In this document: positions 2,070-56,500 of the stretch, piece by piece
Numbering within the stretch: position 1 is the stretch's first letter
Layout: every line of letters starts with the position of its first letter
Notes under the pieces: generated by a model
What the model saw: only the letters and a program-made list of their open reading frames with translations
Told to the model about the DNA's origin: nothing
Database searches by the model: none
DNA from: Blasia pusilla
Taxonomy: Eukaryota
DNA length: 64,000 nt
Direction of reading: 5' to 3'
Assembly (NCBI GenBank): GCA_050084515.1
Contig: CM114271.1
Span: 6,634,001-6,698,000 of the forward strand
Made by a program: the position numbers and the translations under genes

Positions 2070-4559
2070 ATGCATGATTTGGATACGCTGAAGGGTCAAG
2101 GGATCTGTATTGAGTTATCGAATGACACGCCGATCTTCCGACAACCCTACAGGTATAGTGATATGAAGAGGGATTTGATTCAAAGTAGAATTCGGGACTT
2201 GGTTGGAGCAGGACTAATGAAGATGTCACATAAAGAGTATACATCTGCCACTCTCATGCCCACCAAGAAGGATGTGCAAGCCAATTGGACGGATAGGCGG
2301 ATGTGTGGAGATGACCGACCTATCAATTCACAGACGAAGTCCGATAGGTATGCCATGTCCATCCTTGAGGAGATCTTTGATGCAATTGGGCATACAAAGG
2401 TCTTTTAGTTCATTGGATTTGCAAGCCAGATACCATCAATTTCCTATCTGATTGGAGGACAGGCAAAAGACGGCATTTTAGGGCATCAATCCTCACGAGA
2501 ATGATTGTTTGTATTAGTGGCGGTTCTTACCATTTGGGTTAAAGAACGCCCCGGATGAGTTTCACAGGGTCATTGATAGGATCTTGGCAGGTCTGGATTT
2601 TGCTAGGTGTTATATTGATGACATCGTAGTCTTTAGCGCCATTGTTGAGGAGCATGAGCGACATCTAGAGGAGGTGTTTTGATGATTGCAGTTATATAAG
2701 CTCAAGCTACATCCAGGAAAATGCAAGTTCTTCTACGACCAGATTGAGTAGTTAGGTCATATGATATATCCAAAGGGCCTTGGTGTGCATCAGACGAAGG
2801 TAGAGGCTATTTCACGTATTCCATGCCCTACATATGTGGGTCGAGTTCGTGCATTCATGGGATTGGAAATTTTCTATCAATGGTACGTCAAGGGTTTTAG
2901 TTCGATTGTAAAGCCACTAACCTTGCTGACCAATGTGGATCAAGAGTGGCATTGGGGGGATGAGCAAGAGAGAGCATTTCAGATGCTCAAGGATAGACTG
3001 ACGTCCGTGCCCATATTGAGGAGACTGATCAGGGGGCGTCCTTTCCAAATGCATACCAATTGGAGCATGTTTGAGCTTGGAGCCGTGCTCACCCAACATG
3101 AAAATGATAGTAGAGAGTTTGTGGTGGCTTACGCTAGTCGCTCGAACAATGCTGTAGAGGCGAAGTATACTTTGTACGAGGGTGAATGCTTGGTTGTAGT
3201 GTGGGCTGTTGCACATTTCAGATGTTATCTATTTAGCAATCCCTTCACCATCATAACTGATCACCAACCACTTAAGTGGTTGATGGAGTCCGACAAGCTT
3301 ACAGGGAAGCTTGCGAGGTGGGCTCTTTTGTTGCAAGAGTATGACTTCCATGTGATGCATAGACCTGCAATGCTCAACCAGCATGCAGATGGTTTGAGCC
3401 GTAATCCATGCCCGAGTCAACGAGATGCGATTGGAGCTCATTGGCACGGTGAGAGTGATGAGAAGTTAGTGTCAGGATGGCACACGTCATCCTATTTGGG
3501 CTTGTTGGCTATTGGGAGCCAAATTGTTGAGACAACGATGGCGAGGTCTGATGGAGAGTCCTTAGATCCAGAGGCCGATGAGGAGACGATAGGTGGCCGA
3601 GACATTCATGGCAATGGAGTGGTCTTGGAGTACCTGCGTACTGGCAGCGTCACGAGCACAGTGGGTGCTAAAGAGCGGGATCAAATCCTACAGCGAGCCA
3701 GACGGTTCCGGTGGGAGGGGACACATGTGTTGCAAGTTTGGGAGGATGGTAGAGTGCGGGTGGTGCCTCATCCTTTGCACAGAGTACGTTTGGTGTGTCA
3801 TGCCCACGAGGAGTTGGATCATTTTGGAGTGAAGCGGACGTACAACTTGCTCCAGATACAATATTGGTGGCAAGGCATGCACACTGACGTTCAGTAATTT
3901 GTTGCCAAGTGCATGGTGTGTGATCGAGTCCGAGCATCGTTCAATACTCCGACTCCATAATTGCATCCACTTCCGATCATGGATTTAGGTTATAGCTGCA
4001 GTTTGCCTTTGACGGAGCGCCATAATTGTTATCTGTTGGTGATGGTCGAGCACTTCTCGAAGTGGATAGAGTTGGTTGCATTGCCTGACAAAGCGAGTGA
4101 AGGAGTAGCGTATGCCTTCCTAGATCAAGTGTTGAGTCATTACGGCGCACTAGCTGAGGCGTTGACAGACCAGGGTATAGAGTTCATGGGGAGTTTGATG
4201 CCTTGCATTGTGTGATCACGCGTTGATCGACCACTGCATTACTTTGCAAGATTATCCTGAGGCGGATGGACTAGCAGAGCGGGTTGTGCAGACGGTGAAG
4301 AGAGGATTACGCAAGTATGGGTTGGAGAGAGGTCACCTAGGAGATTGGGACCTCCAGTTGCCGTGGTTGGCAATATGATACAGATTCAGCAGGCAGGCAG
4401 GCATCTTTAGCGGCTTTCTCACCGTACTTGCTTTTGTATGGCCGAGAGCCAAATTTACCTGCGGCCATTTGTCGAGATGTTAGTGAGATGTTGAACCTTG
4501 ATGACCCTCATGTTTAGATGCGAGCATGTTCTCATATGATTGAGTGGTTCCGGAGAGTG
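2070..4559 (+). pseudogene. Gypsy reverse transcriptase / RNase H / integrase
   Basis: ORFs 2070-2408, 2761-3897 and 3961-4215 plus the intervening stop-interrupted frames carry RT, RH and IN motifs. Confidence 0.92.
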
Positions 4560-6830
4560 GGAAGTCTACGGCAATGGGAACAAAAATGCACTTGGAGCAA
4601 AAACAAACATATTTTTTGTGCTTATCAGAGTAGGAGTATTGGACCCGCTTGACCAGGTTCCACTGCATGGAGTTTTTAAAGGGAGTTTCTTGAGAGGGGG
4701 TAGGCTCTTCCCATAAATGAAGCAAACATATTTCAGAGCTCGTCAATACTTAGGCTATTTCTCCACCTTTCCTTTTACTCAAACCTTATGCAACAACATT
4801 AATATGTACACAAGTACACACAGATAAATTACCTTTCCAAGTTGCACATGGTAATGACTAAAACTCAAAGACTCAACTTTGAATATGAACACCTTAAAGA
4901 CAACATCCTTATATAGAAGAGGAGCGGTAAGAGGAGAGGAAGAGAGGAGAGAGGAGAGAGGAAACTACCTTCAACCGAAATAGATACTTTTTTTTGAAGA
5001 GAGTTTCCGTCGGGTTGAAGAGAGGAAAATTTTTGTTTGAATTTTTTTGCACTTTTTTGTTCATATATTAAGCGATCCCTACAGCTTTTTTTTTTTTTTT
5101 CCTCTTCCATATTTTGGCAACCCCTCTGAGTCCGACGAGTTGCAAATTGCACAAAATTTAGAAAACTGAAAAATCAGTGGAATCATAAGTGTGGAACCAA
5201 TCACTTTTTCCATCCAAGGTCTGGAAAAAATCTATCATTTGCCCAGGGCTGAATAGAGTTCAAGCTCAAAGTGAAGGTTGAGAAAAAAATAAAAGTACAA
5301 TCTAAAACCTCATTTTCCATCCTCAAAGTGGTTTGTTTAAAATACTTCGAACTTCTTAGAGGGACAGAATTGGTTGGTGGATTCCTACTCCTACCTCCGA
5401 CTCTCTTAAAACTACCAGCAACACATAGTACATGTGCTTACAAGGGAAATACCTTTTGCCACTTGTCTCTCTTTGGACAAAGTCATCACATGAACATGTG
5501 GGAAAGCAACACATGTGCACCACATACACCCCTATGACACTTGAATTTACAATGTTGTTCCCGACCCAATACATCCTTCTTATTCCATTGCCACTCAAGA
5601 CATCTTTCGTGGCGATGATCTCCATTTTTGCCTCCCGAGCTGATGCAATTCGCTTTGCTCTCTCCACCGTTGGCCTGCACATTCTGTTTCTCTTCATCCC
5701 ATTTCTAGACTCAAACAGAAATAATGGATTGAGATCATCCACGTTCTCCGGGTACATGTTGACATCAATATTGGGTTGAATACAAAATGCAAAGGTCTCT
5801 GTAATGCGAACATGCTCCGAACTTCCCCCGTCTACGAGTCTGAAACCGGCACTTGTAAGATTGTCCACTTCGTCTTGAGTGCAGTTTGTGCCTGCGGCGA
5901 TGGGCCAACTCGTGGGGGTATTCCTGGGAGCTCCAATGGCAGCCGGATAAGACTTTCGGAAAGCGAAAGATTCATTTGGGCAGAAGAAGTACTTCAATTG
6001 ATCCCCGGTCCTCGTGAAAGGATCAAAGGTTTTGAGTCCCCAAAACCTGTGCAAAGGTTTTGTGCGTCGATCCTTATCTGATTCTTATTTGGGAAAGTGC
6101 CGCATGCTCTCCTAATGCCATCAAATCCTGCCCTGCAGGTGGGTCCACGTCCTGGGTTGCTCCGAGATATATGCCACTGTCTTAGGTTGCAATCCACCTC
6201 CATTACCGGAATCCCATATTGTTGAACCACCCCAGTGACAGGATGTTACGAACTTCCAACAACTGAGGGCTTTTGAAATAAAACATTCACTCATTTTGGA
6301 GAAGTAACTCCATCACGGATTTGGGACCGGTCCGGGGTCCCCGAATATCTGGGCGGTGTAATTTCCTCATCCAAATCAATCACCGGATTCGTTCCTCGAT
6401 CCTGCCTCTTCACCTGTCTGAAGTCAAGATACTTATCTGATCTCCACGAGTCTCGTTCGGACTGCTCTACCACCATCTGTATGGGATGTCTTGAAACCCG
6501 CCCACGAATATCCCCACCTATGTGTACGTCTTGCTCGAGTGGAGTTCCAGCTACGTACCGGTTGAAGGCTTCGACATACAATTTTTCATCACCAGATCTC
6601 ACACCCGCCCTGACATAGAGCTCGTAGATCGACGGCCCCTTTCCTTTTGTTATGCCTTTTGTGAGGAAGATATGGGATGTTGCAGACTGTAGCATTGCTC
6701 TTGCCTGGTCTTGTTGGCATGCCTCCACAAGTGAAATTCGTTGGCATACTGGTGACGACATCCTAGAGGAATGAACACTTTCTGCTCCACTTGTGTTGGG
6801 GCAGAGGGCATTTTCATGAACGTTCAATCC

Positions 6831-7290
6831 CTGCAACGACGGCAATGTTAGAAGGGAACGAAAATAACTCATGAGTCAAAGAAATAAGCGACCTGTAGGA
6901 ACCAGATGGGTTGTAGGCCCAAGATATCCCATGAACGACTCTGCAACCCGTTGGGTCTCGACGTGTTGTAACCTTAAATCCACCTACTGCAACCCGTCGG
7001 AACCGGACGGGTTGCAAGGCCGAGGCATCCCATGAACGACTCTGTGACCCGTCGGGTCCCGACGGGTTGCACCAAACATCTGGATGCAACCCGTCGGTTT
7101 CCGTCGGATTGCACCCTCGGGCAACCCGTCGGTTTCCATCGGGTTGCACACTCGGGCAACCCGTCGCATCCGACAGCTTGCTTGGTTTCTTCCGTTTGAA
7201 ATCCATATAGTTCCCACGCTTCTCACCCTGAGCTACAACTTTACAAGCAATTCTCAGCGTGAGCTTGACAAGACAAAATAGTGAACTCAC
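6831..7290 (-). other. Spliceosomal intron in MULE-1 transposase, filled with palindromic repeats
   Basis: Minus strand CAG|GTGAGT donor, CTAAC branch-like site and TTGCAG| acceptor. Splicing joins ...NFMRQ to GLNVHENALCPNTSGAES in frame. Confidence 0.8.
6890..7185. repeat. Cluster of ~7 copies of the 27-bp palindrome GCAACCCGTCGG-N3-CCGACGGGTTGC
   Basis: e.g. gcaacccgtcggaaccggacgggttgc at ~6989. Confidence 0.9.
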
Positions 7291-9245
7291 CTGCCGCATG
7301 AAGTTTCCCCATTGTCTCATACGTACAGTCCACCAACTCAACCAAGAGCACAACTCTTTGTACTTCCCCTCAATCGCATGCTTCCTCCACCACCCATGAA
7401 GTTCTTCCTGGCATTCCATGGCCTGCTTCAAGGTTTTGCTGTCCTTGCAGCGTTGGAGTAGAGTGACATGCTCTGTCCTCTTATTCTCCTTGATGCAAGA
7501 TTTGGTGTACCGGATCACAGACTTTTGCCAATGGAAAGCATCCGACCTTTCCCTCTCCGGTTGAACCTCTCCACCCCAGAACACTTCCCGGATAGCAATC
7601 CACCCAGGTTGTGCATTGTCCACCATGAACCCATAAATTTCCGGAGGTGGCCTTTTGTTTTCCTTCACCACCTCCAATAAGAGTAACCAACACATCTTCA
7701 AACTGCCAACGTCTTCTGCCTTTACTTCACAAACAAATATAGTTTTGAGTCCCTTCTCCACATGGTCATAAACGTGAGCACCCATCGTCAACCATCCGTT
7801 CAGCATTCTGTAGCAAATATCAAAGCTTACCCAACTCCCGTAAAGATCTTCCCCTTCCCTCATTCGATCTATAAGATCGAGGCCACTCGACGGACCTGTC
7901 GTTGACATTTTGAAGACATAGGCCCTAGATCCCTCGCCTCCTTGGCCCATGAACTAACATCTCTAAATGAATGGAAATCTGGAGTTGGCCTTGATTCTGG
8001 CGATGGCATCCATTTCGGCCGTCTTTCCATCCAGAACTCGTATTTGACGCAGCACATTCCGGAAGCATTCAGGATCAGCGAGAAATGCGAGATTCTCCCA
8101 GAGTTGTTTCTCCTCAACCGCCGTAATCTCGCCCTGTCCAGGGATTCCAAGAAATTGTTCACAAATTTGTGATGCCGTTGTGAGCTTGATCACTCCGGGC
8201 TTTGAACCCGGAGAGTTTCTGTAGACCTCGGCTACTTTCTTCGCCACATCCTCCTTGATGTGTCTTTGAATTGCATCGGTCACAGGATGAGTGTGGGAGC
8301 CAACATGGAATGCCAGCCTTGTATACTCTGACGTGGAGCCCATGCATCGGTCAATGAAAAATATGTATGCAGGACACGCTCCAACGCAGAAGGGCGATGA
8401 CTGACAATGAGGACATCGATGGCCTCCCGGCGGTATGGTGGCACCGACCTCGTATGGAGTTTCTGCATTCTTGGGAGGGAATTGCGACGTATTGACTCGC
8501 CCGTTGCGCTCTAGATACGGGCATGTTGGACTTCTACACTCCAAGGCTCCCACGCATTGGCGGCGGGAGACAATCCAAGGACCATCTAGAATTGAAGCAC
8601 TGGTCCATTGAAGCGTGCACCATCGATGACAATCAGACTTTCTGTCCATACCCTTCACGCGTCCTCCATCCTTCTTTTGAGCAGGAGCAGCAAGTGGAGG
8701 CAACTCAAAAATGCAATTACCATCGTACGTGGGCGGCAGCTCATCGACAAGAATGTGCTTGAACATTTTCAAGGCCAAAGACGAAATCAAACTATTGCTT
8801 GATACTCGCAAGAGGAACGAGTAGGCGGACAGAGTGCCCGATTGGTGTCCGACAGATCCGCTGAGGTTGATAACATCCGGAATCTCTTCAGGAAGAACAA
8901 CATTGTTCTGGCGGCGGTTGGAGTCGGCCGGATCTGCAGAGCTTGGAGTTGCAAACGTAGAGCTCGGAGCACTAGGAAATTCTAGACCGTCTACTTGGGA
9001 AACAGACGAATTCAGGGGCAGGCCGTAAACTCTGTATTGACCATTTGCTAGAGGTAGGAGATTCCATACTTTACGGTCTGAGGTCACTGGCTGGACCGTC
9101 TCACCTATTATGTCTTTCGTACCGTCCACCCTAACATCTTTGGATACAAAGATGGTTCCAATTTGGAGAAGAAATCGAACAGATAGAAAATTTTCATCCA
9201 CTACTATGAAAGACTCACAAGCTTGGGGTCGAATGATTTCTGATT

Positions 9246-9550
9246 GAGGAAGGGCCGCCAGATGATTGCCACAAGTGAGCTTAACATAATTATCCATTCC
9301 CAGAAATTTCGTACGGGAGGAGGGTGAGAATGAGAAAGAGAATGAGAATGAGAATTTTTAATTTATAGTGAATAGGAAAACATATACTCCTGACAGAATT
9401 TTGAGGAAGGGCCTCCAGATAACTGCCACAAGTGAGCTTAACGTAATTATCCATTCCAAGAAGATTCCAACGGGAGGAGACTGAGAATGAGAATCAGAAT
9501 CAGAATTTTTAATTTATAGTGAATAGGAAACAAATACTCCTGACAGATTT
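9246..9550 (-). repeat. ~157-bp tandem duplication of the transposase TATA box, leader and first ~18 codons
   Basis: Two diverged copies of gaggaagggcc...aattatccattcc...atttatagtgaataggaaa...tactcctgacaga. Confidence 0.9.
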
Positions 9551-9669
9551 TTACTGACAAGATGAATTCGATGGGTGACATTGTCTGACACAATGGATCC
9601 AATTCTGTAACACATTCAATTCTGTTGCAATATGTTACCGGATTTGGGAAGCAGAGGGTTGCGCATCAC

Positions 9670-10260
9670 ACTTGGAACCCGTCGGAGTCCTGGTAACTCA
9701 AAAATTACCCGAAGCTAACCGAAGCCTATAACCCGTCGGCATCGGACGGGTTGCACGCTTCTGCTAAACATTGTCGAAGCGAGCAACCCGTCACTCTCCG
9801 ACGAGTTGCTCGGATACCACTCCTTCTTGCCCGAAGATGCCGGAGGCGTGCAAACCGTCTGTTCCCGATGAGTTCCGCGGGTGCCTCACCTTTTTGCCCA
9901 AAGACGGCGAGGCGTGCAACCCGTCGCCCTCCAACGGGTTGCGCAAGGGCCTCGCCTTGTGGTGCGGCCAGCCGGACTCCGACGACTTGCACGGGAAGCC
10001 CTCGTTCTTAACCCTTGATGAGGGAAGCGTGCAACCTAACGGTCTCCGACGGATTGCCCAAGATACGTCCCGTTCCCGTCCCAAACACGGCGGAGGCGCG
10101 CAACATGTCGGTCTCCGACGGGTTGCGTGGGTACCTCGCGTTCTTTTCCGAAGACGACGGAGGCGCTCAACCCGTCGGTCTCCGACGGGTTGCTTGCGCA
10201 CGTGGCGACGTTCCCAGGATGGCAGAGCCGCGCAACCTGTCGGACTCCGACGGGTTTCCA
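9670..10260. repeat. Array of ~10 copies of the 27-bp palindrome in the divergent promoter region
   Basis: Copies at about 9730, 9783, 9850, 9916, 10031, 10100, 10167 and 10232, plus partial copies. Confidence 0.9.
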
Positions 10261-10347
10261 TTTTTCACGTCCGAACTTCCGTAACATCCGGCAGGTCGGC
10301 GTCGAAAGGACGACGGGACCCAACGGTCAGCCCAACGGCTAGAAAAG

Positions 10348-10355
10348 TATAAATA
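10348..10355 (+). promoter_or_regulatory. Putative TATA box of the MULE-1 accessory gene
   Basis: TATAAATA just downstream of the palindrome array and ~275 bp upstream of the ATG at 10624. Confidence 0.5.
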
Positions 10356-11829
10356 GGGCAGAAATCGCTCATTTCCGGTTTCTCATTTCGCGATCTTCAT
10401 TCCTCACTCTCCCGCGCAGCAGCTGATCAGATACGAAGGGGCATTTCACACGGCGACACATCGCGAGTCGATAGGAGGGAACGAGAGCGAGATGGTTCGA
10501 CTGAGCGATCGCGGGACGATTCGAGCTACCCATCAAGGCGATTCGAGCTCCCCATCTCGACATCAGCAAGGCAACTGATCAAGGGATTCCTCGTGGATAT
10601 AGGTGGAGGCATTTCTGGAAAAAATGACGAGGAAAAAATCACAAGCCAATAAGTCTGGGAGCTTCACTCCGAAGTCCATTAGGACTCCTACGTTTGCTTC
10701 TCGTGGGCCTCGTTTGGCGAATGAAATTAGGCAGCAAGAAATCGAGGAGCGGGAAAGGGAAGCGGAGATGCACAACCAAGTGCTTCTTGCTAGACGTGTT
10801 CAAGAGGCGCTAGATAAACAGAACGCAGAGGCTGAGACGTCGCAGGCCTTGAAGAAAAGGATCGCCGACGAAAAGAGAGAAAAGAAGCGTCGACGCAGCG
10901 TCGGTGAGGAGGGGAATTGGCTAAAGCGAGGAGGGAAAAGCGATAGCCATTGGCGATAGCCACCGCCCAACCGCAAGTGTTGAGATGCGGAAATGTCCCC
11001 ACGAAGTCCGGGACACAATCAACATAGTGGAAACGCCAGAAGTTGAAATCGATGATGACGAGGTCATGAGGACCGCCAGCGTGGAGATGGTGGACATGGC
11101 CGAAGAAGCCGGAGAGCGGTCATTCTCGACTCCAAGCCCGGTGGAGGACATCAACCTCTATCGGATCGACGAGTTCCCAGTCGATTTTCCAGCTTCTATC
11201 TCAGACAAGTTAGCTGGTCAAGAAACCGACCCCATTTTCGAGCGGGTAAGAGAGGATCTGGGTTTTTTGAATTATGTGAATTCCAATTCATTGGGAATTC
11301 AGTGTAGCTTATTTATCTTGTCCCGGTTCCGACAGGTGGTAAAGCAGATGGCACTCATTGAGGGCCACAACGCCCCGAGGATTCCACTCTGCCGATTGCG
11401 GAAAATGGAATACGTCGGCGAAATTCAGTCCGACGAGGATATCACGAAGCTTAAACAATCGGCGGCGACAACATCCTACATCGACAGCTTTCCTCCCTTC
11501 TATGTTCAGCCTTACGACGAGCATGGAACCCAAGCTTTGGTTACGGAGGAGGACTTGGAAAAGCTCGACACATTCTGGAGGATGCGAGACCAGGATTTCA
11601 GAAGGCAAGTTTAGGGCACGGAATTCAGCTGGATGAGGAATCTGCATTTCTTCATCTGGGATGGAAATCATAGGTTCATGGCGTGGACCAAGTTTGCGGA
11701 GGAGCGGCCCAACTCATTGGAGGCACATTTCTGCGTGAAGGCAGTGGTCCTTCACCCATTCCCTCATCACATGGCGACGGTGGAGATGGCAATGTATGCC
11801 ATGAACACGTGAGTATCTTTAACACTTAC

Positions 11830-12485
11830 GCAACTCGTCGGACTCCGACGAGTTGCTCGATTGATGAATGGGTTAGGTTTGTTTTTGCCGAAAGCAACTC
11901 CTCGGACTCCGACGGGTTGCTCGATTGCACGCTATTTCAGATGTTTTTTTAAGAATGCAACTCGTCGGACTCCGACGAGTTGTTTGATTGACCACAGATT
12001 TAATTAGTTTTTGGCCCAAAGCAAACTGTCAGAGTCCGACGGGTTGCTCGACTCGCCGCCTTGTCAGGATGTTTTTTGAAGAATGCAACTCGTCAGACTT
12101 CGATGAGTTGTTCGACAGACTGCAAGTTTAGAAGGTTTTTTCCCCAAAGCAACCCGTCGGAGTCCGACGAGTTGCTTGCCTCGAAACTATTTTTGGCCGA
12201 AATCAACCCGTCGGAGTCCGGCGGGTTGCATTCGGAAGTTGGTTTCCCAAATTTCGCGTCAAATTGCAAGTTTACATTCAATTACGCAACCTGTCGGACT
12301 CCGACGGGTTGCTATGTTCGCGTTAGTATGTTCAGTTGCACAACCCGTCGGAGTCCGACGGGTTGAAACCAGGCATTAGCAAATCTGAATGCAATCCGTC
12401 GGACTCCGACGGGTTGCATCATTTAGCTCGTTTCTAAAATCCGACCTTGAGCTGTGACGACCCGTCGGAGTCCGACGGGTTGCAG
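11830..12485. repeat. Intronic array of ~11 copies of the 27-bp palindrome
   Basis: Starts at 11830, 11894, 11957, 12021, 12085, 12149 (63-64 bp period), then ~12203, 12286, 12340, 12391, 12457. Confidence 0.92.
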
Positions 12486-14659
12486 GAACCCATGTAATTT
12501 CCTGACGGGTTGAGTTTGGATGTGCAGGATTGTATCGGAGGGGAATGTCACCCACCATGGATCGGGATCGCGATCGGGTGAAGAAGGTGCTTACGACGCA
12601 CCCGGGAGAGTACAGGGGTTTCTTGGGCGATGCCCTTGTCAATCAGATGCTTGCAAAGGGTGCTCAGATTAAAAAGAAAACTTGGGCAAATAAGTTTATT
12701 TCCCAAGATGCAGCCGTAACCATCCTTTGCTGGTCGAAGATACAGGCCGCGAAGAAAAGCGCTCCAGTGGAGCTGCAGGGGAGGGAGAAGGTATCTGCGT
12801 CTGAGCGTGCCAAATTCATCCAAGCTACAGTATCTGTAGCAACGAAATACACGGCGAGCAAGATGCAGCGATACATCAGCATTCTCAATCCCGAACTTGG
12901 TCCGGAGTTCTACAAGGAGCTGAAGGCGATTATCAAGCGCCAGCGGGAAAGGGATGAAGATCCGCATGGTCGGATTGGGGAGAAAGTGTCCCTGGATCGC
13001 GTGCATCGGTTTGCGTTGTCCGGCATAAGCGAGTTTAGGAGGATCCGACTAATGAAAATCAGTCTCGAGGGCTCAGAGGCCTAGAAGAGGGCGGCACACC
13101 ATCCTCCGGGTGTGTCCGATCCAGTGATCTCGCACTGGCTATGCGAATGGTCGTTCTGGGATGCGTTGCGGGTTATCGGGAAGTCCGTGCTGGAAGGTCT
13201 GCAAGCAGAGCTCGAAAGATTAGAGCCCATCCCGGATGAAGCAAACCTTGAAAGTTCTGGAGATTTTGAGGTTTGGCTCGACGACATCCGGGACAAGCCA
13301 ACCAAAAACCCAAGATTCAAGACCATGTTCAAGGTTTGCGTCCTCCCTCAAGCAGAGCTTGACGAAGAAGTAGAGGGGAACAAACGGGATCAAGCGAAGA
13401 AGAAGCGAGATCTATAGGAGTAGACGGCCGTTTCTGTTCGACTAAAAGCTGCCCAACGGATGGTCTTCAGGTACCTCGTCCAGTGTAAGAATGGAGGTAC
13501 ATGGGGAAAATTACCGATAGCCTTGAAATTGTGGGCTTCGCCGCGGGATGCAGAGACATTCTCCATGTACGACATGGAGATGGGGCAGCACATGTCCGAT
13601 TCGGAGGTGGAGAATTGCCCCATTTGGCTCGACTTCAACGACCCTGAAGACATCACCGATAAGGACTTACGAGTGCTTCATGATGCAGTGGCCTCAGGAC
13701 AAGACGACATCCCCAATTTCGTCCAGCCTGAAGACTTCTTCATAGGAGATGCAGAAGAGCAGGCCCACGAGACAGCTGAGTTGGCTTCCAAGGTCCGCAC
13801 AGCCAAAGACAAATCCACAGCGGGTCTCAAAGGCAAGGCGAGGGGAGGGAAAAATTTAGAGGCCGAGTCTTCCCAAAGAGAGGCTGAAGATTCAAGGCCA
13901 GAGGCGGAATCGTCCGGGCGAGCGAGGAGAGAGGGTCGGACCAGGTCCGCGAAAAAAACCCCACCAGAGTCTGAGGTCATAGAGACCCCGACAAGCCGTC
14001 TGCACACTAGGGAAAAGCGGAAGCGAGAGGTGTCCGGGTTGTCCCAAGGAGAATATAGTCCATCAACCTTGGGAAGACATAGACAAACAACGACCCGGAC
14101 AAGCGTCCTCCTTCAGTTCACTCCTTTACTGGATGAGCTCAAGAGCTTCAGTTCTCAAGCGTCGACACCAGCCATCAAAAAATTGACAACACTGGGATAA
14201 AAGCTCCAACGAAACGGGCACGCTGCCTGGACGGTGAATGGAGTGGTCGAAGAGGTTGCGGTGGATCTCTTGATCGCCGATCTGCCCTCGGGGTTGCGAC
14301 TTTGGGGCGAGAATCCGTCGGACGAGGTACCTGAGTGGAATGTGCCCCTCTCTTATGACCAGATTGCGCTTTTGTTCTCCTTTGCAAACGCCTATCTGAG
14401 TGACAGGGGCTGCTTCTTGGTGTTGACTGGAGGGAGCGTTGACCCTAAACGAGCTCTTCAACCTCCAATGCGTCAAGAGGTCGCTTAAGTGGAGGACGGC
14501 GCAATCGTGGATCATAAAAAACGAGTACCCACTCCGATCCGCGACGAGTCAGATTCGGGTAAGGCTCAATTCCTGTACTATAATTTCAATTATATTTTAA
14601 TGATGTGTATAATGAGTGTTCATCTCCGTTGAGTGAGTATAATGAGTGTCAATCTGGGT

Positions 14660-15012
14660 TTTTTTGTCCGTGAGCAACCCGTCGGAAGGCGACGGGTTGT
14701 TGGCTTAGAGCAGCCCATGCTCGGCTGAGAGCAACCCGTCGGTTTCGGACGGGTTGCATCTTTCCCACATACAAAGGGAAAACTGCGGTCTACCTGCAAC
14801 CCGTCGGAACCCAACGGGTTGCAGTTGCTTTTGGTTTATCCCAGTTGCTTTTGGTTTTTGGATGCAACCCGTCTGATAGCGACGTGTTGCTCTCAGGCGA
14901 GCATGGGCTGCTCTAGGCCAGCAACCCGTCGCCTTCCGACGGGTTGCTCACGGACAAAAACAACGGAGCCCGACGGGTCGGTCCGGGACAAAACAACCCG
15001 TCGGACTCCGGA
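14660..15012. repeat. Intronic ~100-bp inverted repeat built from palindrome units
   Basis: 14660-14760 is the near reverse complement of 14861-14961, with another palindrome copy at ~14796 between the arms. Confidence 0.88.
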
Positions 15013-17601
15013 CCGACAAAGTTGATCCAAAGTCGATTATTGAAAATGTTCTCAAGCCGACTTCTTTAGTTCTCGACATTGTTTCCAACGTCTTTGATTT
15101 GAGATGGACCACTCCTACGTGTACTGCTTTGTTCGGCCCGAGCACAATTTCCAGGTGTTCAAGATCCAGAATCCTGTGGATCCATGCTCAGATGGGTACA
15201 GCTTAGATAGTTTGTACAATTCCCCCCCCCAGGAATTTACATGCAAGACAGTACCCCACTTCTAGGAGGAAGGGAAAAGTCGCCAGCCCTGATGCAAATG
15301 CTCATCGAGCTCTGCTCAAGGCCGGGTGACTTGGTGTTTGACTTAGTGGGACTTTTAGGGGCAAGTATCAAAGGGGCCTGGCAGAGTGGCATGAACATTC
15401 TCTGCCTCGAGGGAAGGCAGGAACTGTTTGACCTTTGCAAGGAGGCAAAGGCAGAATACGAAAGGCTCGTTGGGGCATACAACTCTCCACCGAAGCCGAG
15501 AGCTCCGATCCCAGAGCCACCCTTGGTAGTGACTCCATCGTCACTTCCAACGATTCCAAAAATCAGGAGGGCAAGGCCGAAAGTAATTTTGCAAGAGCTT
15601 TCGGACGATGACGAGTGAGTTCAAAGAACTCAACGACCCAGCTTGACTGCAGCGTTTGGAGTAGGGAATTTTTTAATGATGAGGCAAAAGATTTCATAGA
15701 ATAGATCAAATGTACAGTTCCGAGCTTTTTTCGGATGATATAAAGCAGAAGAATTTTTCGAACGATGGTGGTGCTTGTAAAAGTTTGCTGATCATTTTTT
15801 GTCTTTTCGAATGTGATCGTCTATGTACTCCGCGGACTTCTATTTTGCAACCCGTCGGATTTCTCTTGCTTGCAACTTTTCACTTTTTGACCACTGCACC
15901 CTTTTTACCACTTCCGGGCAACCTGTCTGATTCCGACAGGTTGCCTGATCGGACTCTTTCCCTGTTGGTCCAACTTAAGAGGCAGTCTGGCGGGCTTCTT
16001 CCCTTGGCACCTTCCCCTCAACTCGTAAAGGCAGGCGTAGGCTTCTTTTCTTCTCTCAGACGTGTTGGATTCCTACTACCTATGTGATTGCCATAATGGT
16101 ATTACCGGGGACGGAGCACATATTGATACTGGATGGGTGTCACATTGCAGAGCGTACAAGGTATACTGCCGAGGAAGGCGGTGGGACTCGAAACAGGTTA
16201 CATGGGACCGTTATGGTGTACCTAGGGGGGGGGCCAAGGCTCTCGAATTTGCCAACATTTTCGATCCCCGTCTACAATCGGCCAGAGGAGCCACTTGTAT
16301 CCTAGGACATTCCTTTGGTATTGTCACCGAGGAGAGTTAGGAGTAAATTTGTAGATGACGAGGCTGAAGAAATCATAGACTAGGTGAAATGTACATTTCC
16401 GAGGTTCCTTCGGAGGTAATAAAGGACGAGATTTTTTCAACCCATTATGGTGTTTGTAAAAATTTGCTGGAATATTTTTTTGGACTTGTGGATTGTGTTC
16501 TTTTAGCTACTCAGAATTACAATTCTGCAACCCGTATGATTCCGACGGGTTGCAACTTTTTGCTTTTTGCCCACTGCAACTTTTTTACCATTTCAGCAAC
16601 CTGCCGGATTCGGCAGTTGATCGCTTGAGTGATCGGACTCTATCCCGGTGAGACCAACTTCTGACGCATTGTGGCGGGCTTCTTGATTTTTGGCTCGTTC
16701 TCCTTCATTCGTCAAACCAGTTGTAGGCTTCTTTTCTTATCTAAGATGTGCAAAATTCCTACTACCTGTCGGATTGCCATTTCGGATTCCCAACCCGTTA
16801 GATCGTCGTGGGTGCAGGGTGGAAGAAAATCACTTCTAAAAATCTTTCCTTTCTTATGGTGAGCTTTCTTACGGGTTGGGAGGGGTGCAGCTTCTCGATT
16901 TCTCAGCCTTAGGATCTGATGTGTTCACATTTCACAAATTTCACAAATTTGGTCTTGAGCAGACACCATTTATAACCAACAGAAAGTTGGTTATGGGGCA
17001 ATTTAGGGGAGGCCATGATGCAGGCAACAATCCCTGCAAAAAGAGAGGTTGGCATCCGGGTGGTCCTCCAACAAAAATACCAAGGGCACTGATTTTTGTT
17101 GACCGAGACAGGGAATGTTAAGAAACTTAGGCTCACATGGAGAGTGATGGAAAAATGTTTAGGGTGGTTTTATGATGTCTCCTTTTTTCTCACCCCCAAG
17201 AAAGAGGAAGTTTTTTTAGGGCCAAATGTGGACCACTAAATACTCTCTTCTAAAGATTTCCTGAATTTGAAAGCAAACAAAAATTTCAAATATGTCAAAA
17301 AGTTTTGAAGAGAGGAGGCGGATTTGGCCCCTTTTTTTGAAGAGAGACTCTCGTCTCTTCCTCTCTTCCTCTCCTCTCTTACTCTCTCCTGCCAGAATAC
17401 CAGCCCCCTATATAGAAGATTGTTGTGAATATTGCAATTACACTTCCAATCTCCAAATAGCATGCACATGGCTTGTATGTTCACCAACATAGAGCACAAC
17501 TATCCCCAATGGAACAAATTAGATCACCCATACTTATCACCTTTATGGTCAAATCTCTCTACTTCTTAAACAATATACATCTTTCTTCTACCTCTTGCTA
17601 G

Positions 17602-25239: not shown

Positions 25240-26165
25240 CCTAATCACAGTCCTCGCAACTGATCTTTGGACAACTGCTAATCACAGGCCTGACATCTAC
25301 CTTATGAACGGTTGCTAATCACAGGATCGACGGGTATTCTCTCAATGATGATGGCTAATCATAGGCCGGCAGCTATTCTCTCTTCTGGACGGCTACTAAT
25401 CATAGGGCGGCTATTTTGTGGACGGCTGCTAATCACACGCCGGTGTCTATTCTGTGGATGATTGCTAATCACACGCCGACGGCTATTCTCTGTTCTGGAT
25501 GGCTGCTAATCATAGGCCGTGGCTATTCTCTATTCTAGACAGTTGTTAATCATAGGCCGGCGGCTATTCTCTGTTCTAGACGGTTGCTAATCACAAGCCG
25601 GCGGCTATTCTCTGTTGTGGACGGCTGCTAATCATAGGGCGACAACTATTCTCTATTCTGGACGGCCGCTAATCACAGGCCCGACGGTTGATAATTAGAG
25701 GCTAGTGGCTATTCTCTGGATGGCTACTAATGACAGGCCCAACGGCTATTCTCTGGACGACTGCTAATGACAGGCCGAGGCTTTTCTCTGGACGGTTGCT
25801 AATCATAGGCCAGAGGCTATTCTATGTTCTGAACGGCTGCTAATGATAGGGAGAGGCTATTCTCTGGACGGTTGCTAATAGCAGGCCCGATAGCTATTCT
25901 CTGTTCTGGACGGCTGCTAATCACAGGCCCGACGGCTATTCTATGTTCTGGATGGCTGCTAATCACAGGACGGTGGGTATTCTCTGCTATGGACGGTTGC
26001 TAATCACAAGCCGGTGGCTATTCTCTTCTATGGACGGTTGCTAATCACAGGCCGGCGGCTATTCTCTGGATGGCGGCTAATCACAGGCCGATTGCTATTC
26101 TTTGGACGACTGCTAATCACACGCCTGCGGCTATTCACTATTATGGGCGGCAGCTATTCTCTAGA
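25240..26165. repeat. ~35-41 bp tandem repeat array with GGCTGCTAATCA / GGCTATTC cores
   Basis: Repeated ggacggctgctaatcacaggccggcggctattctctgttct. Confidence 0.93.
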
Positions 26166-26169
26166 GAGG

Positions 26170-26850
26170 CTGCTCATCCATTTTCCTTTTCGTCTCTCTA
26201 TTCCCTTTTTTTCCCCTCCCTCTCCTCCCTTGCTTCTTTCTCCCTTCCCCCCTTACTTTTTTTTCTCCCCCATTCCCTTTCTTTTTCCCTCCCCCTCTCC
26301 CTCCCTTTTTTTTTTCCTCTCTCTCCTTCCTTTATTTTTTTCCTCTCCTTCCCCTATTTTCTCTTCTCCTTCCTTTTTTTTCTCCCTTCCCTCCTCCCTC
26401 GCCTTCCTCTCTTTCCTATGTTTTGCTCCCTCTCTTTTCTATATTTTCCTCCCTATGCTTCCTTCTTTTTTTCCTCTCATTCCTTTTTTATTCTCCTTCC
26501 CTCCTTCCCTCTTCTCCCTTCATTTTTCCTCCTTCCCCCACCTTTTTTTCCTCCCTCTCCTTCCTTTTCTTTCCTCCTCCCTCTCCTCCCTTCATTTTTC
26601 CTCCCTCTCTTTCCTATATTTTCCTCCCTCTCCTTCCTTTATTTTTTTCCTCTATTTTCTCCTTTCCTTCCTTTTTTTTCCTCCTTCCCTCCCTCTCTTT
26701 CCAATATTTTCCTCCCTCGCCTCCCTTTATCTATCATCACTTCCCTCCCTTATGTTTTCAACCCCCCCTCCCTTTTTTTCCCTCCCTCTCCTTCCTTTCC
26801 TTCCTCTATTTTTTTCTCCCTCCACATACTAGTTTTTTCTTCCTCTCATA
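26170..26850 (+). repeat. ~680-bp polypyrimidine (C/T) low-complexity tract
   Basis: Nearly purine-free plus strand; produces spurious F/S/P/L ORFs. Confidence 0.95.
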
Positions 26851-28439
26851 ATTTAGCCGTTGCTCAAGTGCGCGTAAGGGATTCTGGCCGGCCTGCGGCT
26901 ATAGTGCATACTAGGGGACGGGCTGGCCTACGGCTACGATGCCTTGCTAATCCATGGACTACACGTGGCGGTAGTTTCTTGAAGCTCGAACTTTGAGAGA
27001 AACCTTCGATGGAGGCATGCGAGTGGGCCGGGGGCAGGCGCGGCTAGGCCGTGGATGATCTTTTCAAATTTCAGGTTTTCCTAATCCTCATTTATGGCAA
27101 CTAATTTTAGGTTTCAATAGCCAATTTGAGGTCGAATTGATGGTGTCAAGGCAGCTAATGTGTGTTTATTTACTTGCAGGGCTACCACATTTACATCAGT
27201 TGAGGCCAAATGAGCTCGATTGGTTTCGGAATTTTGATGCACTTTGGGCTATTTTAGAATCTTGATTTTTTGGAAAATGGCAGGCTTTAGCCACAGCCAA
27301 CGGCTAATTTGCAGCTGCAGTCCGTGGTAGATTTGACATGATTTAATATTCATCAACTCTAGGGTCTCCAGTGAGGCCGGAGGCACATTTTAGCTTAATT
27401 ATAGGTAACCTATGCTTCTTCTACTTCCTCTTCTTTTTCTACTTCATCGTCATCTTCTACTGCTATTGGGTTTGTCATGTCTCTTGCTTCATGCTTGGGC
27501 TCCTATTGTGCCAACCTGATTTCATGCCTTTCCTTCTCCTCGACCCAAGGTGCTTGGGTCGAAGCCTGTATGCACTCTTGACCCACACGGAAGCAATGAG
27601 AGACAATTGATCTCCCTGTGTTGGAGAGCCCTTACCCTCTTCACCACTCTGCCTATGTCATCAGAGACGAGCACCTCAACCAATCATATCAGATCAATTC
27701 ATTATGAGCGAGAGAATCCTGGAGATTGGCAACAGGCCAAAATTTAAGCGGCTGATTTTCACTACCTTAGCAAGACCTCAGAAAGCTTATAAATTCTGAA
27801 GTATAGTGACTCACAATCCTGTATGGAAGAGTAGCATCCAAGACTCGGATGGCAGAGTACCATCCAAGATCGATCGGAGAAGCTCGAGATCTTTAGCAGA
27901 TTGCGTAGAAAAGGTTATTCATAATCTTTAGCAGATTTTCATTTCATCCCAATTCTCATTTCTGTGAGACATACCCAAATTCATAAGCATGATTAGAGTT
28001 GCTAGTCTCATGGATGGACACGTATTTTCCACCATAGCTTGAACACTTAGGGAAGCCAAAGATGTACTATGGGTTGTGAAGAGATGGGTCACAACTCAAG
28101 ATCATCCCAAAACAGGCAATTGCAGTGACACTGAAGATCCTCAATGGATGGTCATGATCCAAGTTTGTCCTTAAAGATGCTAGTGTACATTAGGATTCCC
28201 CTGAGTTTTGGTGGTTCAGCTTGTTGACCAGCCGTCAGTGAATGTAATGTATACAAGTCATGGGACATACTGACACTCACAGAAAAGGGACCAATTGGGA
28301 TACTTAAGCAGTGCTTCAGCCACACAAAAAAAAGGTTACAATAAGAGAAGTATCGACCTCATATGCTCATACTTGATTGTGAAACAAACTAAAAAGCAAG
28401 GAGTTTAGATGAAATCTCCGGCTGGTTCCAAGGGTTGAA

Positions 28440-53589: not shown

Positions 53590-56500
53590 TATTAGATTCT
53601 CAACATCCACTCCTCTGAGCACCATTGATTTGATTGGCCCCCTTGTATGAGGAGAAGCCTAGATCGATGGTTCCGACTTAGACGTCGAAGGAGTCATAGT
53701 AATAGGTGGTTTACGGAGTAGCGTTACTAGGTTTATCTAACCCTATATTGCATCAGGGTGCGGGAGAGGAGTGGATGTTGAGAATCCAATACCCCCCCTC
53801 AATATCCATTCTCATGTGGACTACTGTCTTGGACCTATGCCAAGACCCTTCAGATGTCGGTGAAGCTGATCTTCGCTCAAGGCTTTCGTGAAGATGTCTG
53901 CATGGTTATCCTCTGTTGGACAATAGACTAACTTCAAAACCTCTCTCTCGATCAATTCACGAACAAAATGGTACTGGATCTCTATATGCTTCGTACGAGC
54001 ATGAAACACAGGATTATGTGCTATGGCAATGTAACTCTGATTGTCACACCACATTATAGTAGCACTTTCTGGTGCTTCTCCTATGTCCTCCAGTATCCAT
54101 CTCAACCATACTGCTTCACAAGAAGCATAACAAGCCGTCTTGTACTGTGCCTCGGTAGAAGAAAGAGCCATTGTAGGTTGCTTCTTGTGACCCATGACAC
54201 CACACCGATCCTACCAAGAAGCAATAACTAAACTGATCTTGAGAATCTAAATCTCCGCCTAACTGAGTCACAAAACCTGTCATTTCAGTCCCTGCTCCAT
54301 AGGTGATGCCGTACTCGATAGTGCCTTTGATGTACTTCAACACACGCATCCCTGCCTTCCAATGGTTCTCACGAGGCTTAGTTGAGAACCTACTCAATAC
54401 TCCCACAGCGAAGCTAATGTGTGGTCTACTGTTACACAAAAATATCAAACTGCCTACAAGCTTTCTGTACATCTTTTCATCTACCAATGGTGAAACATCC
54501 TCCATCGAGAGTTTTAACTCTACCTCCATTGGCGAGACCACTGCCTTACACTCGGTCATCCCAAATACCTTCAAGATTTCTCTAGCATACTTCTGCTGAG
54601 AGAGAAAAATAGAATCTGACTGTTGCCAAATTTCCAGTCCTATAAAGTAGTGCAGAAGACCTAAATCTGACATTTCAAACTCAGATTCCAACACTCCCTT
54701 CATTTCCTCTATTTTCTTACTATGGTCTCCTGTGATGATCAGATCATCCACATACAAGACTATCAACATATACATCCCATCTTTGCAAAACACATACAAA
54801 TTTGCTTCTGAAGGACTCTTCATGAGACCCTTCTCTCGAAAGAATGTATATATTCGTTGATACCATACCCTTGGGGCTTGCTTCAACCCATACAATGCTC
54901 GATGAAGTAAACAAACTTTCTCTTCTGATCCGGGTGTCTCAAAACCTGGTGGTTGAGAAACATATACCTCCTCCTTGAGACTCCCATTCAGAAAAGCAGA
55001 CTTCACATCGTATTGGTATACATGCCAACGTCTTGTTCCTGCAACCGCTAGAACAATTCGAATGGTTGTCATCCTTGCAGTGAGAGCAAAAGTCTCATAG
55101 TAGTCAAAGCCTTCGATTTGTGAGCATCCTTGTGCGACCAACCTCGCTTTGAATTTATCCAATGTACCGTCCGACTTGTACTTGGTCTTGTACACCCACT
55201 TGGTGAGTATTATCTTCCTGTCCTCTGGATTTTCAACCAAAGTCCAAGTTTCATTTCTCTGAATAGCGTCCATCTCCGTATGCATGGCCTCTCTCCATTG
55301 AGGATGAGCCAGGGCCTTATCCAAGCATGATGGCTCTTCCACCTTCAAGACCTATGTCATCAGGGCCATGTTGACGAGATGTGCGGAAGCTCTATTCTGC
55401 TCCTCTAGTCTCTTGGATCTCCTTGGATGTGTAACAACTTCATCAGTTGCTAGTGGATCCTTACCATCCAAGAGCTGCTTTATCCACTTAGGGTATGACG
55501 ACCGTAGTGGAAGAGCAGGTTGCTCTTTGTAATCATCACCAAAATCTTCTTCTTGATGATCGTGTAAACATCGTGGTGTGCTCGTGGGTTATCTCTTCGT
55601 TTGATGATAATGTGGACGGACCATCGATATCCGCCACTTGACGCAGGTGTTTCTAGAACACCACGCCACGACTCACAAGCATCTTCTTTCCTCAGACACC
55701 AAAGGCGATAAGCTTTAGACTCATCATTGTATCCCATAAAGATGCACTTCTGCTCTTGACTCCAACTTGGTCCTCGATGCTTGAGTGAATATGTACAAAA
55801 CACTCACTACCAAAAGTCCTGAAATGTTGGACTGATGGTACCTTACCTGAGTATGATTGATGAGGAGTCATGCCTTGCACTGACTTGGTAGCACTTCTAT
55901 TTAGAATGTATACGGCAGTATTAACATCTTCAGCCCAAAAGCCTTCTGTCAAACCTTTTGCTTTTATCATACATCTTGCCATCTCCACCACTGTATGATT
56001 TCGACGCTCAACAACTCCATTTTGTTGTGGTGTATGTGCCGTGGTTAACTGTCGCTTGATTCCATGCTCTCCCAAATATTTGTTGAATTCTATTGATAAG
56101 AATTCTCCTCCTCGATCGGTGCGAAGCTTTTGTACCTTCTTTCCTGTCTCATTCTCAACCAGCTTGTGCCATACTTTAAATTTTCCAAAAGCACTTGCCT
56201 TATCACGAAGGAAATACACCCACATCTTCCTACTATAATCGTCGACAACTAAAAAAGAAGTAGGAAGAGTTGATACATTTCAGCATGTATCAACTCTAGA
56301 GGAGCCTTTGCCCTATTGTGGACTCTTGTGGAAATGGTTGTCGGTGTTGCTTGCCCATCATACAAGCTTCACAAGTATCCGACACTCCAGAAATTGTTGG
56401 TAAATCAGCAACCATGCCAGATTTCTGCATCTGACTTAGTAGGGGAAAGCTTAGGTGACCAAATCTTTCATGCCACAACTTACTGCTACTAAGATCTGTA

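Follow-up and report, generated by a model that had tools for sequence, protein, structure and literature searches.

The window analysed here is a 64,000-nucleotide stretch of Blasia pusilla contig CM114271.1 (positions 6,634,001 to 6,698,000 of the forward strand; coordinates below are those of the window). It holds a decayed Mutator-like transposable element with two divergent genes, both of them decayed, namely a transposase on the minus strand and an accessory gene on the plus strand. The non-coding DNA of this element carries many copies of a 27-bp palindrome, or dyad, made of two 12-bp arms with the consensus GCAACCCGTCGG-N3-CCGACGGGTTGC, and it is this dyad, and the protein that may read it, that concern us. 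The features of the element are the following.

4911-4920 and 17405-17414: left and right copies of the target-site duplication TATATAGAAG, 10 bp, possibly 11, read from the end sequences
4921-17404: the whole decayed Mutator-like element, 12,484 bp, with a direct repeat on both sides and imperfect GA-rich inverted ends
4921-4958, with partner 17348-17390: GA-rich terminal inverted repeat, about 40 nt, gapped, local alignment score 51
5007 and 5117-5143: left subterminal half-site and one palindrome, 86-200 bp from the left end
5356-9296, minus strand: transposase, from open reading frames, with coding blocks at about 9296-7291, 6830-6291 and about 6240-5356
6888-7181: array 1, six palindromes (6888-7147) and a degenerate seventh (7156/7170), in the putative transposase intron 6831-7290; TRF period 35
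9674-10258: array 2, nine palindromes (9728-10258) with a period of about 67 bp, intergenic, between the divergent genes
10348-10355: TATAAATA (TATA box), 90 bp past the last array 2 site
10625-15618, plus strand: accessory pseudogene, with a 5' block (10625-11246) of uncertain frame
11336-11808, plus strand: WDGNHR block of the accessory gene
11830-12513: array 3, eleven palindromes (11830-12483) and a half-site, period 64/128 bp, in the first accessory gap (likely intron A)
About 12528-14558, plus strand: long middle block of the accessory gene, which includes DLPSG
14674-15004: array 4, five palindromes (14674-14947) and two half-sites, in the second accessory gap (intron B, 14559-15232)
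15233-15618, plus strand: last block of the accessory gene, with the motif-I-like stretch PGDLVFDLVGLLGAS
15847-16607: 3' region, palindromes at 15847, 15918 and 16527 and a half-site at 16596, in two diverged copies of a 450-bp unit

A target-site duplication of 9-11 bp is typical of Mutator-like elements, and the 10-11 bp duplication at this locus therefore agrees with that assignment. The two ends are not equal, as the right end carries some 14-18 extra terminal bases beyond the inverted repeat, and neither of the terminal inverted repeats contains the dyad, nor does the final 800 bp at the right end contain a site. No part of the element recurs elsewhere in the window. The family is nevertheless highly repeated: in public runs of the organism designated A, 160,860 contig pieces (run X1) and 10,001 (run X3) matched at 85% likeness or more, figures whose depths are not to be equated with copy numbers. 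Organisms B and C and air metagenomes, which had small word shares, do not enter into them. All 30 of 30 bins of the element were covered in these runs, the arrays included, although these were among the shallowest, and other copies thus also carry the array regions. The number of array units is not fixed, since DNA contigs of other copies drop or add units, with joints at 11860>12067, 12177>12368 and 6889>6999.

Within the 64-kb window there is no perfect match to the consensus. When up to three mismatches are allowed, 28 copies are found (8 with one, 13 with two and 7 with three mismatches), where 0.00 would be expected from 100 shuffles; with up to seven mismatches in 24, there are 35 non-overlapping copies, where 100 shuffles gave 0.07 on average and never more than 1. 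The first-pass annotation of this DNA, made from its letters alone, had reported about 35-40 copies with perfect 12-bp arms, restricted to the element and absent from its exons. The copy number is right when degenerate copies are included, while the perfect arms are true of the consensus and not of the copies: the only copy with 12/12 complementary arms, at 11830, is a variant (CTCG...CGAG), and across the 35 copies 337 of 420 arm positions are Watson-Crick paired. Both restrictions are borne out. The whole set of 35 lies within 5117-16553, with no further dyads in the remaining 51.5 kb of the window, and 69 of the 70 half-sites with at most two mismatches fall inside 4900-17400, the single outsider (37682) being at chance level. 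No palindrome is centred in a coding block (0/35), though 6979 of the 12,484 nt of the element (56%) are coding. Several orphan half-sites stand beside full palindromes (5007, 7156/7170, 9674, 12502, 14970, 14993 and 16596). This motif specificity is a statement about the 64-kb window, and the evidence base is one decayed copy and is correlative. Beyond the window, the dyad core had one match in 241 million metagenome records (a GC-rich bacterial contig) and three single sites in 185,579 prokaryote species taken at one genome each (GC-rich bacteria), all of them unrelated and at chance level; an Rfam search returned no families.

The arms of the palindrome have been kept while the DNA between the palindromes has not. 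Within arrays the arms are 77-88% identical and the spacers 45-53%, and between arrays the arms are 81% identical while the spacers, at 39%, are no more alike than shuffled spacers (40%). Because the spacers have fallen to the shuffled baseline while the arms stay 81% identical, the palindrome itself is under constraint. The consensus by position has the same sharp limits, with each arm base kept in 25-35 of the 35 copies and no position outside the 27-mer kept in more than 17 of 35. Such constraint fits a sequence-specific reader that would bind as a dimer. The departures from the consensus are themselves biased, 48 of 92 being C>T or G>A, and nowhere in the element is CpG as dense as in the arrays (0.086-0.119 per nt, compared with 0.054), both of which fit the decay of methylated DNA.

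Two candidates for the nature of the repeat were tried and rejected. One was a separate miniature inverted-repeat transposable element, which the first-pass annotation had itself named as an example of what would speak against its idea; the flanks of the units are unconserved, the units have no target duplication around them, and the spacers are at the random level. The other was an RNA hairpin under selection. Arm mismatches of the G-U kind outnumber those of the A-C kind by 29:17 overall, and the bias runs in the wrong direction in the intron of the minus-strand gene; as the sequence is kept beyond what mere pairing would need and there is no strand-consistent G-U bias, recognition of the DNA sequence, rather than of an RNA hairpin, is the likelier cause.

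The dyads had also been placed in the introns, the promoter and the flanks of the element, a placement which stands unevenly. The two accessory gaps are bounded by blocks that align to homologues from Riccia, with GT/AG boundaries read by eye, and the boundaries of the putative transposase intron, GT (7290) and AG (6831), were likewise read from the sequence. In two stranded RNA runs, whose cover is low and comes chiefly from copies that are 85-95% alike, the depth over 14552-14975 is near zero (0.03-0.07), and there is no reduction over 12008-12431 or 6920-7343. No canonical splice joint is among the 15 of 99 RNA joints listed. The second accessory gap is thus well grounded as an intron and the first is likely to be one, while the transposase gap 6831-7290, with neither a drop in RNA depth nor a canonical joint among those listed, remains putative. 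Across the transposase the first mates map to the plus strand, and across the accessory gene to the minus strand; for libraries of the common type this means that both genes of family members are transcribed in sense. The dominant RNA strand flips between bins 9040-9463 and 9888-10311, i.e., at array 2, which itself has little RNA cover.

The sole joint listed in the transposase gene runs from 6002 to 7181 and was seen in both runs (8 and 11 reads), with the non-canonical ends CC..TG. The skipped stretch, 6003-7180, takes out array 1 together with a coding block and ends exactly at the last half-site, and no DNA contig contains the same joint; it may come from an expressed deletion derivative or from a template switch at the palindromes. 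At the other end of the element, sense RNA depth is 9-18 over 14976-16671 and 1-3 over the upstream accessory blocks, a rise that could stem from 3' bias, from an independent transcript that begins beyond array 4, or from family fragments of that part. Expressed copies differ in sequence over 15627-16109, with loose ends on both sides.

Two of the site-bearing regions have a larger internal structure. Intron B contains a foldback (14661-14760 and 14861-14960) whose 100-nt arms lie 100 nt apart, are 93% complementary and hold two dyads each; folded as RNA, intron B reaches a dG of -240.8 kcal/mol (z -25), and small RNAs of the hairpin type could be made from the foldback. In the 3' region, the two copies of the 450-bp unit (15651-16094 and 16333-16780) are 73% identical, and each has a dyad and a half-site.

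The sites are not spread evenly with respect to the two genes, as 28 of the 35 surround or interrupt the accessory gene. This copy of the gene is a pseudogene, given its five in-frame stops (11612, 13082, 13415, 13421 and 14198) and probable frame changes. Homologues from Riccia (P0042 and P0006) align to 11327-11809, 12563-14440 and 15238-15519, and the parts conserved in the family are WDGNHR, a long domain of no known kind and D-[LMIV]-P-x-G, to which DFAGGWG is added in Riccia. With the 657-residue middle part as query, a full HMMER search gave 35 representative relatives, none better than E 1e-29, while a word-index search with P0002 at near length gave no match. The only named relatives are hypothetical proteins of Riccia sorocarpa or R. 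fluitans. All 21 of the 21 matches to the WDGNHR region are R. sorocarpa paralogues spread over many contigs, which gives the gene the look of one that is carried by transposons. UniRef gives several Riccia members of the family (P0042, P0043, P0040 and P0051, from R. sorocarpa) the name "Trimethylguanosine synthase"; since Pfam gives there only a C-terminal N6_N4_Mtase match below its cut-off, this label looks like an automatic mis-assignment. Searches of PDB sequences with the accessory family had no matches.

The accessory protein had been taken for a fusion of a ParB-like domain and a methyltransferase, and of these two identities the first was not borne out. We take the WDGNHR, or DGNHR-type, motif to resemble ParB/Srx. 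Pfam found ParB_N (PF02195) at E<=10 in none of 15 family members and none in P0001, hhalign against one plasmid ParB gave a probability of 0.2%, a PDB profile search had no matches, and a scan of prokaryote genomes for the pattern DGNH[RQ] gave 19 pattern matches with no confirmed relative among them. The AlphaFold model of the WDGNHR part (mean pLDDT 38.0) is too poor for a fold search. Language-model leads from the Atlas point first to DUF3723 clusters (0.96) and then, at rank 26, to a ParB_N cluster (0.92). In canonical ParB, moreover, parS is recognised by a helix-turn-helix domain and not by the N-terminal ParB/Srx domain, and as neither Pfam nor the Atlas found a helix-turn-helix domain here, the step from "ParB" to "palindrome binding" is a weak one.

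The methyltransferase reading fares somewhat better, and we regard it as weakly supported. The order of motifs agrees with that of a beta-class enzyme, with the motif-IV-like D-x-P-x-G first and the motif-I-like stretch near the C-terminus, and all six weak tblastn matches to plasmids (E 0.05-1) lie in DNA methyltransferase genes. The N6_N4_Mtase profile (PF01555) matches the last block of the window copy at E 0.021 and 15.2 bits, and the Riccia proteins P0042, P0043 and P0040 at 23.7, 24.8 and 26.2 bits (E 5e-5 to 9e-6, over the last 50 profile positions), all below the gathering cut-off of 26.7. A tblastn search of phages with this part found nothing, hhalign gave it a probability of 1.5%, and its AlphaFold model (pLDDT 43.8) is again too poor for a fold search. 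The catalytic motif (D/N/S)PP(Y/F/W/H) is present in none of 58 family proteins. In its place D-[LMIV]-P-x-G is found in 22 of 58, i.e., in every relative that covers the site; the window copy has DLPSG where a plasmid enzyme has TDPPY; a motif-I-like match is found in 7 of the 58 (DFAGGWG in those seen), and the window copy reads DLVGLLGAS. Thus the protein shares the permuted motif order of beta-class N6/N4 DNA methyltransferases and differs from them in its catalytic motif and in its sub-threshold Pfam scores, and it is probably a pseudo-enzyme or one with a changed substrate. For one enzyme of this class, MpDN4MT1 of Marchantia, the motif is reported as TSPPY (10.1101/2021.02.12.428880).

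The central triplet of the palindrome is ACT, AGT or ATT in 17 of the 35 dyads, which makes the exact centre GANTC (e.g., 12161-12165), and in array 3 all 11 palindromes have an ACT or AGT centre. GANTC is the site of CcrM-type beta-class adenine methylases. A tie between this centre and the methyltransferase-like domain is speculative.

Our proposed explanation is that the 27-bp dyad would be a cis-acting recognition site of the transposon family, read as a dimer by a sequence-specific protein that the element itself encodes. That some sequence-specific reader of the dyad exists we consider probable. The balance tips slightly towards a reader encoded by the element. The accessory protein, with its WDGNHR block, long middle domain and methyltransferase-like C-terminus, would be the favoured reader, because 28 of 35 sites lie around or in its gene and the termini have no site; as a specific identification, this is tentative and may well prove wrong. 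The arrays stand in a bidirectional promoter, in introns and in 3' and subterminal DNA, and from there such a protein could recognise the copies of its own element and regulate how they are transcribed or the state of their chromatin, much as VANC proteins do. The sites exist, are specific to the family, are non-coding and are conserved against diverged spacers, and their unit number varies between copies; any binding by a protein, the identity of the binder and any effect on silencing are inferences.

Several points weigh against this proposal. The copy in the window is a pseudogene, and its sites have partly decayed, as the C>T and G>A changes attest. Sites inside one array share descent, which leaves about six independent clusters of evidence and not 35. 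Pfam finds no DNA-binding domain in the accessory protein, and the Atlas finds nothing for its middle domain, while the Cys/His-rich regions of the transposase, which could bind DNA instead, are the only such candidates visible. Neither the six sites in the putative transposase intron nor the one at the left end would lead one to the accessory gene. Lastly, the ParB identity is unsupported by any alignment, with the WDGNHR motif and the language-model leads being what is left of it.

Precedents make the idea of the first-pass annotation, that of a self-recognition system analogous to VANC, less unusual than it might seem. The closest is VANDAL21 (Hiun) with its protein VANC21, again a member of the Mutator superfamily with an accessory gene beside the transposase. 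According to PMC5735166, the VANC21 motif is enriched in no family but its own and is repeated in tandem within introns of VANC21 and VANB21, upstream of VANA21 and in terminal regions, with units gained and lost. The layout seen here, a private, non-coding motif in tandem arrays, matches that of the VANC21 targets closely, and this part of the analogy stands, while the ParB part found no support by alignment. The motifs differ, as that of VANC21, in the same source, is 9 bp long (YAGTATTAY), non-palindromic and in one orientation, and ours is a 27-bp dyad at distances of 35-83 bp. Furthermore, binding and hypomethylation have been established by experiment for VANC, whereas the present system is known from its sequence.

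The second precedent comes from red algae. In the Plavaka (EnSpm) elements of Bostrychia, as described in a 2025 preprint (10.1101/2025.02.11.637652), PAG2 combines an N6-adenine methylase with SET and PAG3 a ParB-like N-terminus with a 2OG oxygenase. Tandem inverted repeats adjoin PAG3, and in the authors' proposal the element is bound and modified by the ParB-like protein that it encodes; accessory genes homologous to these are described there from Mutator elements of Chondrus. Compared by description, these elements and ours are both giant eukaryotic DNA transposons with ParB-like or methylase-like accessory genes and tandem inverted repeats near an accessory gene. They differ in host (red algae there, liverwort relatives here), in the transposase superfamily of Bostrychia and in having the domains in separate genes together with SET and 2OG, whereas both motifs stand in one protein here.

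Bacterial partition systems offer a more distant likeness. ParB acts on parS, and SopB on the tandem sopC repeats of plasmid F, and these partition sites resemble the present case in being dyads that are read by a dimer and are sometimes arranged in tandem with a fixed period; here, by contrast, no ParB_N, helix-turn-helix or CTP-binding motif was detected, and there is no partition context. Prokaryotic fusions of ParB-like nucleases with methylases also exist. One could imagine a bolder version of the proposal, in which a bryophyte Mutator transposon turned a prokaryote-type ParB/Srx-methyltransferase fusion, its catalytic tetrapeptide changed to D-x-P-x-G familywide, into a reader of its own DNA, whose dimer would load on centromere-like dyad arrays (period 55-67 bp) and would either spread against silencing or set an unusual mark. 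We judge this version to be quite improbable. If it were true, self-recognition would have been built from parts of plasmid partition and of restriction-modification, convergent with VANC.

The alternative that survives best is that the transposase reads the dyads, through its Cys/His-rich N-terminal region or a SWIM finger, the arrays being regulatory or assisting the transpososome and the accessory protein being uninvolved. The transposase has parts that could do so: its Cys/His-rich blocks are common to two Logan proteins, P0003 and P0004, which align to 8832-7237 with 38% and 37% identity and are 50% and 47% identical to the transposase core, and a SWIM-like finger lies at its C-terminus (E 0.0032; 17.4 bits, below the Pfam cut-off of 19.6 bits). 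DDE-like residues can be picked out by eye (SFDICY, MVDNAQ and GAESVH), while Pfam detects no family, the MULE domain included, in 6814-7953 or 7963-9357, nor in P0003 or P0045. The gene also holds 6-7 sites in its own putative intron, and a palindrome with a half-site lies 86-200 bp from the left end. As a model for this alternative there is AtMu1c, a Mutator-family protein acting as a sequence-specific activator, whose transposase alone, according to 10.64898/2026.08.24.746577, binds motifs in cognate copies of the element and brings about their hypomethylation and activation. The binding peaks of AtMu1 in that account sit at the terminal inverted repeats, however, and it is just there that our element has no dyad, its GA-rich repeats and the last 800 bp of its right end being free of sites. 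Together with the clustering of 28 of 35 sites round the accessory gene, this makes the transposase an unlikely reader.

A 159-bp tandem duplication (9244-9402 and 9401-9552, 86% identical) covers the 5' end of the transposase gene with its start codon.

Alternatively, the arrays may have no dedicated reader. They would then be a by-product of structure, or else something that silencing acts on: hairpin-prone repeats would grow by slippage or unequal exchange and, once transcribed together with the foldback of intron B, would give rise to double-stranded RNA and to small RNAs by which RNA-directed DNA methylation is brought to the element. Each dyad does fold as a DNA hairpin (-12.9 to -13.7 kcal/mol, z -5 to -7), the foldback of intron B is very stable and has almost no RNA-seq cover, and unit number varies among copies, with one RNA joint ending exactly at a half-site. 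The CpG density of the arrays and their C>T and G>A decay would be expected of methylated DNA, and the VANC target repeats are also targets of RNA-directed DNA methylation (PMC10398659). Structure alone, however, would keep complementarity and not one particular sequence, and what is seen is arms that are 81% identical across arrays amid random spacers, with a single clear compensatory variant lineage; array 2, moreover, is part of a promoter that few RNA reads cover. Such a process is also compatible with a reader existing as well, which makes it a weak rival, and as the whole explanation we find it hard to believe.

Very unlikely, finally, is a host transcription factor as reader, such that the element would have gathered inverted stress-response motifs that tie its expression to host signals: transposons are known to recruit host stress factors, both consensus arms contain what we take to be the DRE/CRT core bound by DREB/CBF AP2-type factors (CCGAC / GTCGG), and a TATA box follows closely on array 2, but all 12 bases of each arm are conserved, well over a core of 5-6 bp, the base ahead of CCGAC is mostly T or C and not the A/G of RCCGAC, most sites are intronic and not in the promoter, and a host motif would be expected outside the element as well, where the other 51.5 kb have none.

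To our knowledge, self-recognition by a transposon has been demonstrated by experiment only for VANDAL/VANC in Arabidopsis, with a second case proposed from sequence in red algae, and we know of no such system in the liverwort lineage. A literature search for ParB-like or methyltransferase accessory genes in transposons found no report of such arrays or of such an accessory gene in bryophyte transposons. With a reader of the kind proposed, the present element would add a third lineage, in which the named relatives are only liverworts, with a like layout (an accessory gene and private arrays in promoter and introns) and different parts (a long dyad and a methyltransferase-like pseudo-enzyme), and this recurrence would suggest that transposons repeatedly evolve self-recognition. 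It also sets a single 27-bp site beside two candidate proteins, a pairing that can be tested, in organisms whose DNA methylation biology is unusual. A reader that is sequence-specific might be used to direct epigenome editing to chosen sites, which has been suggested for VANC.

The surroundings of the element are rich in transposons. A fragment of Ty3/gypsy type (RT_RNaseH, integrase zinc finger and rve) lies just to its left, at 2752-4215, and one of copia type (RVT_2 and rve) at 54116-56279. Between these, three overlapping open reading frames of 228-330 codons lie on the same strand at 25963-26996 and match no Pfam family; the segment 26001-28000 has a GC skew of -0.30 and an AT skew of -0.35, and 25963-26996 is probably low-complexity repeat DNA.

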